From an uncultured Bacilli bacterium (GTDB lineage: Bacteria; Bacillota_I; Bacilli_A; RF39; UBA660): DNA of 64,000 nucleotides. The notes beneath the pieces were generated by a model that searched no databases, had not been told where the DNA came from, and saw only the letters and a list, made by a program, of their open reading frames with translations. Positions 4,666 through 59,542 of this stretch are shown in pieces. Position numbers and translations under genes: made by a program. The stretch lies in the NCBI GenBank assembly GCA_947628535.1, contig CANRAF010000001.1, positions 268-64,267 on the forward strand, given 5' to 3'. Each line of letters begins with the position of its first letter. Position 1 is the first letter of the stretch.

Positions 4666-4695
4666 ATTATACCCCCCCCCGTATCGTTTTGTCAA
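4666..4695 (-). promoter_or_regulatory. sigma-A promoter with G9 tract in the spacer
   Basis: TTGACA-aaacgatac-G9-TATAAT, 18 nt spacer. Confidence 0.85.
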
Positions 4696-4731
4696 TAAAA
4701 AAACACTTCTTTTATTTTGAAGTGCTTTCCT

Positions 4732-6126
4732 TTATTTTATTATTATTGTTACAGTTGTTGTTTTTGGTGTATATGTTAATTTTAAATCTTCTCCTGTAAC
4801 TTGAACTTTTACTTTATGCGTTCCTTTATCTAATCCTTGTAAATCTACAAATGCTTGAATATTTTCTGAAGAAGCATCTTTAATATTAGTAGCTGATCCT
4901 TTTACTATTACTGTTGCTACTGAATCAGAACGCGATGCAGCTTGAGCTGTTAAGCCATCTTTTAAGTTTTTAGTTGCTATATTTATATTTTTAACTGTTT
5001 TTTCTTTAACATCTGCTAAAGTAACTTCTGCAACTACAGATTTAGTAGATATTTCTCTTACTCCACTTGGAAGTGATAAGTTAACTGTATATTCTGTTTT
5101 CTTATCAAGACCATCTACATTTATATTTACTGGTATATATGAAATCTTTTCTAAGGCACTTTCATTACCATAAATAGTAGCATTTGTCTTACTTAATTTT
5201 ATTTCATCTATAGCTTTTCCAAAGGCAACTTCACCTTCTGGAACAACTCTAAGTGGTACTTCTTTACTTGGGGATGCTATTTCTATTGAAGCATCAACTG
5301 TTCCAGGAACTATTTCTATGTCCAGTTTATTACCTTTTGAATCATAAGCCACAAGAGGTATTTCTTTAAGTGTTGTTGTTCCAACTGTAGGTTTAGTTAT
5401 TTTTCTAATATCAACTAAAGCCTTAACTGTTGCTATTTGTTCTAGTTTGTATTCTGCACCTTTTACATATACTTCATCCCTACTGAAACTTATATCAGAA
5501 ATAGTATATTTAGAATCTAAACTATCTTCATATAGAATTTCTTTAGTTATTTTCTTAGATTCAGACATTTTTTCATAAACAACAACTGTTGCTACTGATG
5601 GATCTAGTTTATAATCTATTGATGAAACTGATCCACTATATTTTAAATCTACTTTATGGGTTCCAGGTTTTAAATCACGAAGATCAATAACTACTTCGTC
5701 ATTTTGAAATTGTTTAGCTAGATATAAATCCGCTCTTCTACCAATCAAAGTAATATCAACTGTTTCTGGAAGTCCTTCAATAACATATGCTTCTTCATTA
5801 TAAAGAGCTGTTACTTGTTTATTATAAATAATATCTGCAGAATTATTTGTTAATACTTCTGTTATTTTATCAACTCCAAAGAAAGCTATAAGAGCTATTA
5901 ATAGTGATAGACTTATTAATACTAATTTGTTATTTAAAAGTCTATCAAGGGGTTTACTAGTACCTTTAAATGGTTTCATTGCTAGTAACATAAGTTTAGC
6001 AAGTGGAGTTATAATAATTTTATCTATAACTATATATATTTGACTAATTAAATAATAGATGCCACGAGCTAGTTTTTTTAATAATTTAAATTTTTTCTTT
6101 TTCTTTGAGGATTTTTTCTTTGCCAT
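4732..6126 (-). CDS. cdaR: CdaR/YbbR diadenylate cyclase regulator
   Basis: Repeated YbbR-like domains, directly downstream of cdaA. Confidence 0.85.
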   Translation of the reverse strand: MAKKKSSKKKKKFKLLKKLARGIYYLISQIYIVIDKIIITPLAKLMLLAMKPFKGTSKPLDRLLNNKLVLISLSLLIALIAFFGVDKITEVLTNNSADIIYNKQVTALYNEEAYVIEGLPETVDITLIGRRADLYLAKQFQNDEVVIDLRDLKPGTHKVDLKYSGSVSSIDYKLDPSVATVVVYEKMSESKKITKEILYEDSLDSKYTISDISFSRDEVYVKGAEYKLEQIATVKALVDIRKITKPTVGTTTLKEIPLVAYDSKGNKLDIEIVPGTVDASIEIASPSKEVPLRVVPEGEVAFGKAIDEIKLSKTNATIYGNESALEKISYIPVNINVDGLDKKTEYTVNLSLPSGVREISTKSVVAEVTLADVKEKTVKNINIATKNLKDGLTAQAASRSDSVATVIVKGSATNIKDASSENIQAFVDLQGLDKGTHKVKVQVTGEDLKLTYTPKTTTVTIIIK

Positions 6127-55677: not shown

Positions 55678-55757
55678 AATATCATCTCCTTTATTTAAGT
55701 TTATCATATTTATAAAAAAAATAAAACCACAAAAGTGGTTTAATGAAGAATAAAAAG

Positions 55758-56006
55758 TTAAGAAATTAATTTTAAAAAAGCTTCTTTGTGAAAGTTGTTT
55801 AAACTTCTCACCGAATAGTATTTCTGTGCCCTCCCATATTTCGAAAAATCCATATTGTATGATATGTATGTTAAACTCTGTTTCTTCCAGTATATCCTTA
55901 CTATTATCTCTGTCTCATACCCATTCAATCCCTTTTCTCTACATTTCTCTATTAATTCCTCTTTGTTCGTCGGTAAATTCATCAATGTCTTTAATCTCTT
56001 TGGCAC
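55758..56006 (-). CDS. sigma-region-4/ArpU-like HTH protein, copy 1
   Basis: ETEIIVRIYWKKQSLTYIS...YSVRSLNNFHKEAFLKL; GTG start overlapping the upstream stop; the 3 inter-copy SNPs are all synonymous in this frame. Confidence 0.65.
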   Translation of the reverse strand: MPKRLKTLMNLPTNKEELIEKCREKGLNGYETEIIVRIYWKKQSLTYISYNMDFSKYGRAQKYYSVRSLNNFHKEAFLKLIS

Positions 56007-56443
56007 TTCTCTTCTCCCTTTACTACTATATAGTTCATGTATACCGCTAACATACTACCTAATATTATACATAATAACACACTTACATATATGCTCGGTA
56101 TTAAGGCTGTTATTATATAAAATATTGTCCATGTGAATGTCGTACATGCCACTGTCGAGTTTAAATGAAATGTCTCCCCTAAAAGTGTTCTCACAAAGAA
56201 AAATCCTATTAGAAAAAATGATAACTCTGCAAACGCATCATTAAAATATGCTATTACAAATACTCCCGCTGTTTGTATTAATTGAAGTGGTATTGTTATT
56301 CCATAAAATATTACATTTTCTATTATTCTCTCTAATTTTTCTGCTCTTGTTTGGGCAAAATTCTCTATCGATGCTGTATTATTAAACCAAATCCCGTTCT
56401 TTCTCTTTCTCTTCTCTTTTTCTTCGTTTCCTTTCTTATTCAT
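55991..56443 (-). CDS. AgrB-like membrane peptidase, copy 1
   Basis: VRTLLGETFHLNSTVAC retains R...G..H-x6-C (His-Cys spacing as in S. aureus AgrB H77/C84); about 4 TM; GGAGG RBS. Confidence 0.65.
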   Translation of the reverse strand: MNKKGNEEKEKRKRKNGIWFNNTASIENFAQTRAEKLERIIENVIFYGITIPLQLIQTAGVFVIAYFNDAFAELSFFLIGFFFVRTLLGETFHLNSTVACTTFTWTIFYIITALIPSIYVSVLLCIILGSMLAVYMNYIVVKGEEKCQRD

Positions 56444-56505
56444 TTATTCCTCCTATTTGTTTAATAATAGACAAGGGCCCTTTTATCTATTATTCTTTTT
56501 ATTTA

Positions 56506-56598
56506 TTATTTTGCTATGTTAACTACTTTTTTTGCTAGTTTCTTTGCAAATTTGTTTTCTTTGTCGAATTTGCCCCACCATAATAGGCTTTGTCCCAT
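56506..56598 (-). CDS. 30-aa peptide MGQSLLWWGKFDKENKFAKKLAKKVVNIAK, copy 1 (absent from the ORF track)
   Basis: AGAGGTG RBS, ATG at 56598, TAA-TAA; overlaps the 3' end of the membrane-protein gene in another frame. Confidence 0.65.
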   Translation of the reverse strand: MGQSLLWWGKFDKENKFAKKLAKKVVNIAK

Positions 56599-57190
56599 CT
56601 TTTACACCTCTTTTCTTTAAATATACTTCTTTTACTAATATAATTATTCCCATAATTATAAAGTAATCTATTGATAATAAATTCCTCGTTGTTTCATTTA
56701 TTTGTGTAAAATCTATAAATCTTACTTTATACATATATGTTATTCCTTCTATTACTACATTTAATCCTATACTTAAAAATATATATATGATACTTCTTAT
56801 TTTTCTTTTTGAATATATATAACCAAATACTATGAAGAAGATTATTACAAATAATTGTGCTATTCCTTTATCAAATATTCCTACTACTAATATATTTAGT
56901 AATAAATATACAATACTAAATTTAAATAATTTCTTGGCATCTTTTACTCTAAACACTATGAGCATAACTGCATAAAAATTTAATATGATAACTATCCAAT
57001 TTGTTATATAATCTATTGCTTTTATAACATTTATTTCCTTTAGATTTTCATATGTTACTGCATAATGTGGAAATCCCATACTTTCCATAGCTGTATTGAA
57101 TATTATTAACATAACCATTATTATCAGTAACCACACTACTACCTTTGCTATTTTCTCATTTACCCCTAACCATTTTATGAAATCCTTCAT
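56519..57190 (-). CDS. multi-pass membrane protein (about 6 TM, no kinase domain), copy 1
   Basis: GAGGT RBS before MKDFIKW; hydrophobic helices; TATAAT at 57215-57210. Confidence 0.75.
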   Translation of the reverse strand: MKDFIKWLGVNEKIAKVVVWLLIIMVMLIIFNTAMESMGFPHYAVTYENLKEINVIKAIDYITNWIVIILNFYAVMLIVFRVKDAKKLFKFSIVYLLLNILVVGIFDKGIAQLFVIIFFIVFGYIYSKRKIRSIIYIFLSIGLNVVIEGITYMYKVRFIDFTQINETTRNLLSIDYFIIMGIIILVKEVYLKKRGVKDGTKPIMVGQIRQRKQICKETSKKSS

Positions 57191-57351
57191 ATATACTACC
57201 TCACTTCCGATTATACTATATCTATCTTTCTTTGTAACGCAATTGTTACGCAAATGATGTGCTTTTCCATTTTTTTCCATTTACTATTTTATCATCTTTT
57301 TAATTTGTAATGGAACTTATTTGTTACTTTATTTATATTATAATGTTTTTA

Positions 57352-57388: not shown

Positions 57389-57733
57389 GGGGACGATAGG
57401 GTTCGACAAGAGTATAATGATTTAAACTGCAAGTAGATGGCAATCTTTAAATGCATTTTTAAAAATAACTGGAAACAGACAATTACAATTCGCTTAATTT
57501 AATTAACTAGAGCGAGCTCTTGTATATTCTCTGCTTACTGGAATATATTAGGGTAATACTAAGTAGGCTATATTACTATAGTTCCTATATATAGTAATGA
57601 ATTTTTATAGGATAGTTGTCTATGTGGTTGTTAATTGCTTTGTGGATAATGAATTTTTTCAATTAACTAAACTTGTAGATGTTTAAATTTAATTTGCTTT
57701 TGGACAGGAGTTCAATTCTCCTCGTCTCCACCA
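57389..57733 (+). ncRNA. ssrA: tmRNA
   Basis: 5' GGGGACG...TTCGAC pairs with 3' CGTCTCCACCA (G3:U), T-loop TTCAATT, ATAACT resume context followed by tag ORF GNRQLQFA-stop (57471-57497). Confidence 0.95.
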
Positions 57734-57757: not shown

Positions 57758-57831
57758 GCCGATTTAGTTTAGTGGTAAAACAGATGCATGGTAAGCATCA
57801 GAGATCAGTTCAATTCTGTTAATCGGCACCA
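57758..57831 (+). tRNA. tRNA-Thr(GGU)
   Basis: GCCGATT/AATCGGC acceptor stem, GATGC-ATGGTAA-GCATC anticodon arm, ACCA end; one T-stem mismatch. Confidence 0.85.
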
Positions 57832-57929: not shown

Positions 57930-57957
57930 ATTTTTATTATATCTGAAGAATAAAAAG

Positions 57958-58206
57958 TTAAGAAATTAATTTTAAAAAAGCTTCTTTGTGAAAGTTGTTT
58001 AAACTTCTCACTGAATAGTATTTCTGTGCCCTCCCATATTTCGAAAAATCCATATTATATGATATGTATGTTAAACTCTGTTTCTTCCAGTATATCCTTA
58101 CTATTATCTCTGTCTCATACCCATTCAATCCTTTTTCTCTACATTTCTCTATTAATTCCTCTTTGTTCGTCGGTAAATTCATCAATGTCTTTAATCTCTT
58201 TGGCAC
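57958..58206 (-). CDS. sigma-region-4/ArpU-like HTH protein, copy 2
   Basis: Protein identical to copy 1. Confidence 0.65.
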   Translation of the reverse strand: MPKRLKTLMNLPTNKEELIEKCREKGLNGYETEIIVRIYWKKQSLTYISYNMDFSKYGRAQKYYSVRSLNNFHKEAFLKLIS

Positions 58207-58643
58207 TTCTCTTCTCCCTTTACTACTATATAGTTCATGTATACCGCTAACATACTACCTAATATTATACATAATAACACACTTACATATATGCTCGGTA
58301 TTAAGGCTGTTATTATATAAAATATTGTCCATGTGAATGTCGTACATGCCACTGTCGAGTTTAAATGAAATGTCTCCCCTAAAAGTGTTCTCACAAAGAA
58401 AAATCCTATTAGAAAAAATGATAACTCTGCAAACGCATCATTAAAATATGCTATTACAAATACTCCCGCTGTTTGTATTAATTGAAGTGGTATTGTTATT
58501 CCATAAAATATTACATTTTCTATTATTCTCTCTAATTTTTCTGCTCTTGTTTGGGCAAAATTCTCTATCGATGCTGTATTATTAAACCAAATCCCGTTCT
58601 TTCTCTTTCTCTTCTCTTTTTCTTCGTTTCCTTTCTTATTCAT
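58191..58643 (-). CDS. AgrB-like membrane peptidase, copy 2
   Basis: Identical to copy 1. Confidence 0.65.
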   Translation of the reverse strand: MNKKGNEEKEKRKRKNGIWFNNTASIENFAQTRAEKLERIIENVIFYGITIPLQLIQTAGVFVIAYFNDAFAELSFFLIGFFFVRTLLGETFHLNSTVACTTFTWTIFYIITALIPSIYVSVLLCIILGSMLAVYMNYIVVKGEEKCQRD

Positions 58644-58705
58644 TTATTCCTCCTATTTGTTTAATAATAGACAAGGGCCCTTTTATCTATTATTCTTTTT
58701 ATTTA

Positions 58706-58798
58706 TTATTTTGCTATGTTAACTACTTTTTTTGCTAGTTTCTTTGCAAATTTGTTTTCTTTGTCGAATTTGCCCCACCATAATAGGCTTTGTCCCAT
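58706..58798 (-). CDS. 30-aa peptide, copy 2
   Basis: Identical to copy 1. Confidence 0.65.
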   Translation of the reverse strand: MGQSLLWWGKFDKENKFAKKLAKKVVNIAK

Positions 58799-59390
58799 CT
58801 TTTACACCTCTTTTCTTTAAATATACTTCTTTTACTAATATAATTATTCCCATAATTATAAAGTAATCTATTGATAATAAATTCCTCGTTGTTTCATTTA
58901 TTTGTGTAAAATCTATAAATCTTACTTTATACATATATGTTATTCCTTCTATTACTACATTTAATCCTATACTTAAAAATATATATATGATACTTCTTAT
59001 TTTTCTTTTTGAATATATATAACCAAATACTATGAAGAAGATTATTACAAATAATTGTGCTATTCCTTTATCAAATATTCCTACTACTAATATATTTAGT
59101 AATAAATATACAATACTAAATTTAAATAATTTCTTGGCATCTTTTACTCTAAACACTATGAGCATAACTGCATAAAAATTTAATATGATAACTATCCAAT
59201 TTGTTATATAATCTATTGCTTTTATAACATTTATTTCCTTTAGATTTTCATATGTTACTGCATAATGTGGAAATCCCATACTTTCCATAGCTGTATTGAA
59301 TATTATTAACATAACCATTATTATCAGTAACCACACTACTACCTTTGCTATTTTCTCATTTACCCCTAACCATTTTATGAAATCCTTCAT
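58719..59390 (-). CDS. multi-pass membrane protein, copy 2
   Basis: Identical to copy 1. Confidence 0.75.
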   Translation of the reverse strand: MKDFIKWLGVNEKIAKVVVWLLIIMVMLIIFNTAMESMGFPHYAVTYENLKEINVIKAIDYITNWIVIILNFYAVMLIVFRVKDAKKLFKFSIVYLLLNILVVGIFDKGIAQLFVIIFFIVFGYIYSKRKIRSIIYIFLSIGLNVVIEGITYMYKVRFIDFTQINETTRNLLSIDYFIIMGIIILVKEVYLKKRGVKDGTKPIMVGQIRQRKQICKETSKKSS

Positions 59391-59542
59391 ATATACTACC
59401 TCACTTCCGATTATACTATATCTATCTTTCTTTGTAACGCAATTGTTACGCAAATGATGTGCTTTTCCATTTTTTTCCATTTACTATTTTATCATCTTTT
59501 TTAGCCCTTTTTATTTTTTTTAACATAAAAAAAAGAATTTTG

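Follow-up and report, generated by a model that had tools for sequence, protein, structure and literature searches.

A leaderless peptide gene beside a reduced AgrB in uncultured gut Bacilli: a probable AgrD analogue with its parts in reverse order

Introduction

Autoinducing peptides (AIPs) are made in two steps, in which AgrB cyclises the precursor and a second protease removes its leader, and the way in which the AIP intermediate crosses the membrane is still debated. The classical precursor, AgrD, consists of a 24-amino-acid amphipathic leader at its N-terminus, followed by the AIP and then by an acidic C-terminal tail. In Enterococcus faecalis, where fsrB and fsrD are responsible for the lactone gelatinase biosynthesis-activating pheromone (GBAP), FsrD lies in frame with the end of FsrB, carries an N-terminal leader and yields a nine-residue ring. 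The Clostridioides difficile phage phiCDHM1, for its part, reportedly has agrD, agrB and agrC as separate, canonical genes. Here we describe a 30-codon gene that precedes the gene of a 150-amino-acid AgrB relative (mini-AgrB) in a stretch of 64,000 nucleotides from an uncultured Bacilli bacterium of the RF39 lineage (GenBank assembly GCA_947628535.1, contig CANRAF010000001.1, positions 268 to 64,267 of the forward strand). This whole stretch is called the window below, and all coordinates refer to it unless a locus is named. The product of the small gene is probably an AgrD analogue, the substrate of the adjacent mini-AgrB, with its parts in reverse order.

The likeness to the staphylococcal, listerial and clostridial AgrD/AgrB pairs (PF05931, PF04647, TIGR04223) lies in a small precursor encoded beside an AgrB-family membrane peptidase with a His-x6-Cys motif, in a putative Cys or Ser nucleophile five residues ahead of a hydrophobic residue at the predicted P1 position, and in the combination of an amphipathic, probably membrane-binding helix, a conserved segment that would serve enzyme recognition and a variable mature part. 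The layout is different, however, since the peptide has no N-terminal leader and carries its amphipathic helix at the C-terminus, joined to the recognition segment; this follower is basic (+6) and helical, whereas the AgrD tail is acidic. The peptide gene also overlaps another open reading frame (ORF) partly or wholly, and the enzyme has 150 amino acids and four transmembrane (TM) helices instead of about 190 and six, with no AgrC kinase near the cassette. With fsrB/fsrD the locus shares a Ser lactone (predicted here) and a precursor gene interwoven with a larger ORF belonging to the system, but our peptide is leaderless and is read in another frame than its host ORF. As with phiCDHM1, agr-type genes are found here on Firmicutes phages, although the phage relatives are single polypeptides joining a 6TM part, AgrB and a helix-turn-helix (HTH) part, with the peptide gene nested in a linker. 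In the literature searched, we found no description of a leaderless or inverted AgrD, of an AgrB-HTH fusion or of a nested agrD.

The peptide gene and its orthologues

The gene is the second of a four-gene minus-strand operon encoding, in order, a membrane protein (M253), the peptide, mini-AgrB and an 82-amino-acid protein (h82). A gap of 62 nt separates it from the AgrB-family gene downstream, which has the same orientation, and it encodes the 30 amino acids MGQSLLWWGKFDKENKFAKKLAKKVVNIAK. Its parts, and its second copy, are the following.

56506-56598, minus strand: peptide gene, first copy, stop codon included; orthologues in 25 of 28 related loci and a coding signature
within 56506-56598, minus strand: putative exotail of the peptide, M1-Q3
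56575-56589, minus strand: putative ring core, S4-L-L-W-W8
56509-56574, minus strand: follower, G9-K30
56506-56508, minus strand: stop codon
56610-56605, minus strand: Shine-Dalgarno (SD) sequence GAGGTG, 6 nt 5' of the peptide ATG
58706-58798, minus strand: second, identical peptide gene, inside cassette copy 2 (57944-59501)

The initial annotation had noted, at 56506-56615, a hidden peptide that resembles an inverted and leaderless AgrD, an interval that corresponds to the ORF plus its ribosome-binding site, since the SD sequence sits at 56610-56605. The ORF is hidden because 80 nt of it are shared, in a different frame, with the 3' end of the upstream 253-codon ORF, and no alternative in-frame start occurs upstream of it in the window. 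The exact 30-amino-acid peptide is absent from a collection of 15 billion proteins, in which six of ten orthologous peptides tried were also absent while the other four were present without a name. For the follower helix the hydrophobic moment over 14 residues is 0.70 and the net charge +6, and the moment of the whole follower is reached by 1.2% of shuffled sequences.

A scan of one genome per species gave 28 syntenic loci, labelled Bacilli bacterium, uncultured Mycoplasma sp. or Tenericutes, with the order MreB - GT4 - M253 - peptide - AgrB - h82 - ... - HPF - UvrB. When we traced the peptide through the DNA context beside the agrB-like gene, we found its ORF in all 25 loci that could be read, the other three being unreadable at contig ends or masked runs of N; the small ORFs that the initial annotation had proposed to collect from homologous cassettes do exist. 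In 22 of the 28 loci such an ORF stands directly 5' of the agrB-like gene, while in L001 and L002 it stands on the far side of the transfer-messenger RNA (tmRNA), next to a second, complete M253 copy, and L004 retains only the C-terminal part of the peptide, beside a masked run. The runs of N at about 3780-3880 in L004 and about 3760-3870 in L006 mask the greater part of M253, together with the N-terminal codons of the peptide gene.

A strong SD sequence stands 6-10 nt 5' of the start in every orthologue, and the motif [SC]xxW[WFILMV][GP]xF occurs once per locus, just 5' of the agrB-like gene or, in L001 and L002, beside M253, and nowhere else in the six frames of the 28 loci, which exceeds what chance would give. 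The putative nucleophile position is occupied by Ser in 16 and by Cys in 8 of the 24 sequences (the window included) and by nothing else, its codons being exclusively AGY or TGY, so that the only change tolerated there is a single A/T switch. Three residues further, at ring position 4, a Trp is invariant; position 5 is hydrophobic (Trp, Phe, Ile or Leu) and is followed by Gly or Pro, then by x-Phe-x-x-Glu and by x-x-[F/L/I]-Ala-Lys-Lys-...-Lys. Within the follower, F11, E14 and K19 are invariant and A18, K23 and K24 nearly so. The 2-9 residues before the nucleophile are different in all 23 species, and ring position 2 is highly variable among the orthologues. The conserved Cys/Ser, the conserved aromatic residue and the variability that the initial annotation had named as marks of an AgrD-like peptide are thus all present. 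Its leaderless layout holds as well: none of the 23 species has room for an N-terminal leader, which fits the idea that no second protease is required.

The overlap with M253 does not account for this conservation. The conserved body of M253 ends near 56603 at ...KEIYLKKRG, and its 3' tail (56519-56602), which overlaps the peptide gene, is unconserved; in 13 species the stop codon of M253 comes no later than the first codons of the peptide ORF, and the longer tails found elsewhere are unconserved. We could therefore exclude that the peptide ORF is a tail of M253 or its frameshifted C-terminus, as M253 ends too early in those 13 species. Pairwise variability at codon positions 1, 2 and 3 of the peptide frame is 0.31, 0.18 and 0.46, a pattern that fits the signature of a translated frame, and the peptide frame is the selected one because the M253 tail is either unconserved or ends early. 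The orthologues and this signature confirm that the 30-codon ORF is a real gene.

We also compared the divergence of the variable part of the peptide with that of its neighbours. With the MreB distance removed, partial Mantel tests gave a correlation with the divergence of M253 (r = 0.37, p = 0.0005) and with that of AgrB (r = 0.35, p = 0.001), and none with that of the flanking GT4 (r = 0.00, p = 0.52). Such tests may be anticonservative (liberal) for related sequences; the result is suggestive of co-variation of the variable part with M253 and AgrB.

The peptides of L003 and L007 (GSWFWFG) weakly matched the EAGR box, with E between 5e-4 and 1e-3. This box is an aromatic and glycine-rich motif of Mycoplasma gliding-organelle proteins, and we took the resemblance of the peptides to it, as well as to the Cupiennin family, as compositional.

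The mini-AgrB enzyme

55991-56443, minus strand: 150-amino-acid mini-AgrB, with four predicted TM helices and R85, G89, H93 and C100 in the TM2-TM3 loop

The initial annotation had tied the peptide to an AgrB cut, and the adjacent gene indeed encodes a true AgrB relative with the catalytic His and Cys. Mini-AgrB matches the Pfam family PF04647 (AgrB) with 30.2 bits (cut-off 23) over profile positions 17-120 of 185. Gut metagenomes contain many homologues of it under the label 'accessory gene regulator B family protein [Bacilli bacterium]', and a precomputed PF04647 assignment was found on 120 of 120 of them among the matches listed. R85, G89, H93 and C100 (R-x3-G-x3-H-x6-C) are invariant. Proteolysis by Staphylococcus aureus AgrB needs R70, G75, H77 and C84 (PMC10196373); the His-Cys spacing of 7 in mini-AgrB is the same as that of H77/C84, while the spacing of Arg and Gly is off by 1-2 residues. 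Since mini-AgrB has a Lys-rich N-terminus and four helices, the positive-inside rule would place the catalytic loop, which joins helices 2 and 3, in the cytoplasm, as in S. aureus AgrB. With this enzyme next to a gene that has a Ser/Cys-only position, the AgrD-like interpretation of the initial annotation is supported at the sequence level.

M253, h82 and their fusions in phages

56519-57190, minus strand: M253, a six-TM membrane protein, with its actual start (MKDFIKWLG) at 57190
55758-56006, minus strand: h82, a putative sigma-70-region-4-like HTH protein of 82 amino acids, its start overlapping the agrB stop

M253 belongs to no Pfam family and matches no PDB entry by sequence or by fold; in NCBIfam it has a single weak match, to an O-antigen polymerase, that does not reach the cut-off. 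The AlphaFold2 model (mean predicted local distance difference test, pLDDT, of 78) has six long helices and an N-terminal amphipathic helix, and by inspection the EExxxR and His motifs of CPBP/MroQ-type proteins are absent from M253. Mean pairwise identity over 19 species is 0.50 for M253, 0.64 for h82, 0.75 for both AgrB and GT4 and 0.78 for MreB. M253, with the lowest value, is thus the fast-evolving member of the cassette, and in this it resembles the AgrC sensor of agr loci.

For h82 we found no Pfam match and no PDB sequence match. Its AlphaFold2 model (pLDDT 83) is a small helical bundle, for which the best Foldseek matches are sigma region 4 and HTH repressors, none of them significant (E >= 1). 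The assignment to a sigma-4-like HTH rests on the ranking of these hits, along with the helix pattern and the classical HTH carried by some of the fusions described below.

In 15 of the 28 relatives, h82 is followed by a fifth gene (L008, at 4689-5420 of that locus; L004, L007, L010-L015, L020, L021 and L024-L027), which encodes a protein of about 240 amino acids; its C-terminal domain is of the LytTR family (58-64 bits), and its N-terminal half gave no match to receiver models. LytTR is the DNA-binding domain type of AgrA, and on sequence grounds we count its presence beside the cassette in favour of an agr-type reading. The domain has no match anywhere in the 64-kb window, the gene being absent from the window's subclade. 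The LytTR protein is strongly divergent between species (29-38% identity), and a gene for a cold-shock protein comes after it.

We then found the parts of the cassette joined elsewhere. When the mini-AgrB profile was searched against 1.84 billion representative proteins, it returned one tight cluster and, after a gap, proteins of 360-446 amino acids with a central AgrB-like domain in which H-x6-C is kept; the full R-x3-G-x3-H-x6-C motif is also present in these distant fusion proteins. Their N-terminal 200 residues are homologous to M253 (hhalign probability 97.4%, E = 1e-11, 168 columns) and their C-termini to h82 (up to 22 bits in a local hmmsearch; hhalign 80%, E = 1.4e-5), as in the alignment of the fusion segment CDKETLIEICKAKDMSAMETDLLV with NKEELIEKCREKGLNGYETEIIV of h82, while some of them carry a terminal classical HTH, for example LSDRELKVFKLYY...IEDIAAELDVSRRTI. 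That M253, AgrB and h82 form a single polypeptide elsewhere argues for one membrane complex. The fusions are rare, with 6-7 homologues per search among 5.8 billion clusters, and none were found in IMG/VR.

DNA was at hand for nine fusion genes (L029-L037), which are single ORFs of 381-421 amino acids. Most of the nine are in phage or prophage contexts: in seven, a gene just 5' of the fusion encodes a phage capsid protein, endolysin or holin, while L035 and L037 have no recognisable phage gene near it. In all nine, the linker between the M253 and AgrB parts contains a +1-frame ORF, homologous to the peptide gene, of 24-35 codons with a strong SD sequence of its own, encoding peptides such as MFK-SWWFF-PKARAFKKMINIAKKA, MRKWGG-SLFFL-PKASAFQKILDFVKKTI and MFRLWSPA-SFLFF-PRLKAFTKMRNKASTI, and in eight of the nine a Ser stands five residues ahead of a Pro, Gly or Ala. 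The precursor gene is therefore conserved across about 30% AgrB identity and is fully overprinted in the fusions.

Two invariant cysteines, C147 of mini-AgrB (56003-56005) and C22 of h82 (55941-55943), flank the junction of the two proteins (EKCQRD ... LIEKCREKG) and are also kept in the fused phage proteins (PLCDKETLIEICKAK); a metal or disulphide site at the domain boundary is possible.

Operon signals, duplication and surroundings

57210-57238, minus strand: promoter-like site GTTACA-17-TATAAT upstream of M253 (consensus match only)
56463-56494, minus strand: hairpin between the peptide stop and the agrB ribosome-binding site, with a 12-bp A/U-rich stem and GGGCCC in the loop
55724-55741, minus strand: terminator-like hairpin and T-run after h82 of copy 1, just outside the repeat
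57389-57733, plus strand: tmRNA, between the cassette copies
57758-57831, plus strand: tRNA-Thr, between the cassette copies

The hairpin that follows the peptide gene (-10 kcal/mol, z = -2.2) has an equivalent in 15 of 18 species (loci among L007-L028, folded as single sequences), with A/U-rich stems of 10-14 bp. The stem sequences differ among species while complementarity is kept, and the loop GGGCCC (or GGGTCC) is conserved; no clear T-run follows. It could be an attenuator, an RNase or processing site or a palindromic DNA operator, and may set a high ratio of precursor to enzyme. A hairpin after the precursor gene is expected in operons for peptides that are made on the ribosome and modified after translation (RiPPs), and by this analogy the conserved hairpin would suit a RiPP precursor gene.

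The whole cassette is present twice, as a repeat of 1558 bp (55744-57301 and 57944-59501) with three mismatches, all in h82 and all synonymous since both h82 translations are identical. It is flanked by the GT4 glycosyltransferase and MreB genes on one side and by those of HPF and UvrB on the other. The source sample is a rabbit gut metagenome, from which one Logan contig spans 55813 to 58012 unbroken, so that the end of the second h82 copy beside tRNA-Thr is real. In L001, L002 and L009 the left copy retains AgrB and h82, with M253 shortened to 55 amino acids and no peptide, while the right copy retains M253 in all three and the peptide in L001 and L002, L009 ending at the contig edge; the pattern suggests reciprocal losses that followed the duplication seen in the window. 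In L017 there is a single cassette with the tmRNA upstream.

Discussion

We favour, with a probability of roughly 0.65, the reading in which the 30-codon gene encodes an AgrD analogue that is the substrate of the adjacent mini-AgrB and has the parts of AgrD in reverse order. The scheme we infer for its cleavage site, cyclisation, export and sensing is as follows. The variable N-terminus of 2-9 residues would become the exotail, the five-residue core [Ser/Cys]-x-x-Trp-hydrophobic would form the ring, and the C-terminal follower would combine a recognition motif, G/P-x-F-x-x-E, with a Lys-rich amphipathic helix. This cationic helix would dock the precursor at the membrane's cytoplasmic face beside the H93/C100 loop, where Cys100 would attack the Trp8-Gly9 bond, free the follower and hold the N-terminal octapeptide as an acyl-enzyme thioester; Ser4 (Cys in one third of the species) would then resolve the acyl-enzyme into a five-residue lactone (or thiolactone). 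The product, (M)GQ-cyclo(SLLWW), would already be mature, which would make a leader protease unnecessary. M253 would likely be the receptor and/or the exporter, and h82 likely the output. In S. aureus the amphipathic membrane role is played by the N-terminal leader of AgrD (PMC10196373), to which the amphipathic follower would correspond in role.

Several observations weigh against this reading. The AgrD models PF05931 and TIGR04223 match neither the window peptide (E <= 1) nor the 22 orthologues (E <= 10), and the gene order is D-B, with the peptide upstream of agrB, rather than B-D. The core is less variable than staphylococcal AIPs, with a fixed Trp at ring position 4, the phage orthologue of L030 has no Ser or Cys at the expected position, and the Mantel tests may be liberal, as said above. 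Mini-AgrB is short of the full length of about 190 amino acids and six helices, having 150 and four hydrophobic helices, and it lacks profile positions 121-185, which include the region around K129-131. Mutation of K129-131 in S. aureus AgrB keeps peptidase activity and abolishes AIP formation (PMC10196373), so that mini-AgrB, without that region, might only cut; M253 could supply the part that is missing. Neither in the window nor in the 28 loci did we find a histidine kinase or a response regulator close to the cassette, and the locus thus lacks the AgrC kinase and AgrA receiver-LytTR protein that mark an agrBDCA locus. Finally, no RNA-seq runs carrying the locus were found.

A wider proposal, which we regard as tentative and rather doubtful as a whole, would make the module a self-contained, kinase-less device for communication by cyclic peptide, of phage origin. 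It would have begun as one polypeptide made of a sensor-like 6-TM part, an AgrB cyclase and a sigma-4-like part, with the pheromone precursor overprinted in the +1 frame and matured by one cut, and its split version would have been domesticated in the chromosomes of gut Bacilli (beside ssrA in the window's subclade). By analogy with arbitrium, a fusion lying between lysis and replication modules could report phage or lysogen density.

Among the alternatives to an AgrD analogue, the one that survives best, although we consider it unlikely, is that the peptide is translated and never cyclised, serving as a membrane-surface subunit or a regulatory substrate of an M253-AgrB-h82 complex; for example, a truncated AgrB could cut a tether or inhibitor and thereby turn the HTH protein on or off without any secreted signal. 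This would suit a mini-AgrB without the C-terminal third, which in S. aureus is partly needed for AIP formation and not for the peptidase, as well as the physical union of HTH and AgrB domain in phage relatives, suggestive of regulation tethered to the membrane, and the absence of a kinase near the cassette in the window and the 28 loci. However, the strict Ser/Cys five residues ahead of a conserved boundary is hard to explain without a role as nucleophile, and an N-terminus that is hypervariable and changes together with M253 and AgrB is a typical feature of signals that determine specificity.

We give still less credit to the possibility that the product is the cationic amphipathic helix itself, whole or released by AgrB, acting on membranes like a bacteriocin or a phenol-soluble modulin, or timing phage lysis. 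Like leaderless bacteriocins and phenol-soluble modulins, the peptide is short, has no signal or leader and carries a Lys-rich amphipathic helix, here with a net charge of +6 and a moment of 0.70; three orthologues weakly match the spider antimicrobial family Cupiennin (E = 0.048), and the phage homologues directly follow endolysin and holin genes. Those peptides, however, act intact, with no AgrB-type partner and no Ser/Cys-xxW core, and both of these would be left unexplained here. The cassette has no ABC transporter and no recognisable immunity gene, and the helix is the conserved part of the peptide, whereas antimicrobial peptides usually diversify. It could nevertheless be a secondary activity alongside the one we favour.

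That the ORF is untranslated, and owes its conservation to the overlapping end of M253 or to an RNA or DNA element, we consider highly improbable, for, although 80 nt are shared with M253 in the window and gene callers miss most orthologues, M253 ends at or before the peptide's first codons in 13 species and has an unconserved tail, a strong SD sequence precedes every one of more than 30 orthologues, variability is highest at the third position of the peptide frame, and the stop codons take the same relative position in bacterial and phage families alike.

Under the AgrD-analogue reading, the peptide and mini-AgrB would probably work as AgrD and AgrB do, yet the peptide escapes the AgrD hidden Markov models and has neither the N-terminal leader nor the acidic tail of an AgrD. 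The family is found in an uncultured gut lineage, in metagenomes of rabbits, humans and ruminants; a limited literature search on this lineage yielded no system of cell-cell signalling. The family suggests that AgrB-type modules can work without a histidine kinase and shows that a precursor gene can be wholly overprinted within the gene of a fused polypeptide, so that genome mining keyed on AgrD models or annotated small ORFs misses such a family. If the leaderless precursor is what it seems, it would offer a minimal way, with a single enzyme, of making cyclic (thio)lactone peptides, which would help both to understand AgrB and to make such peptides.

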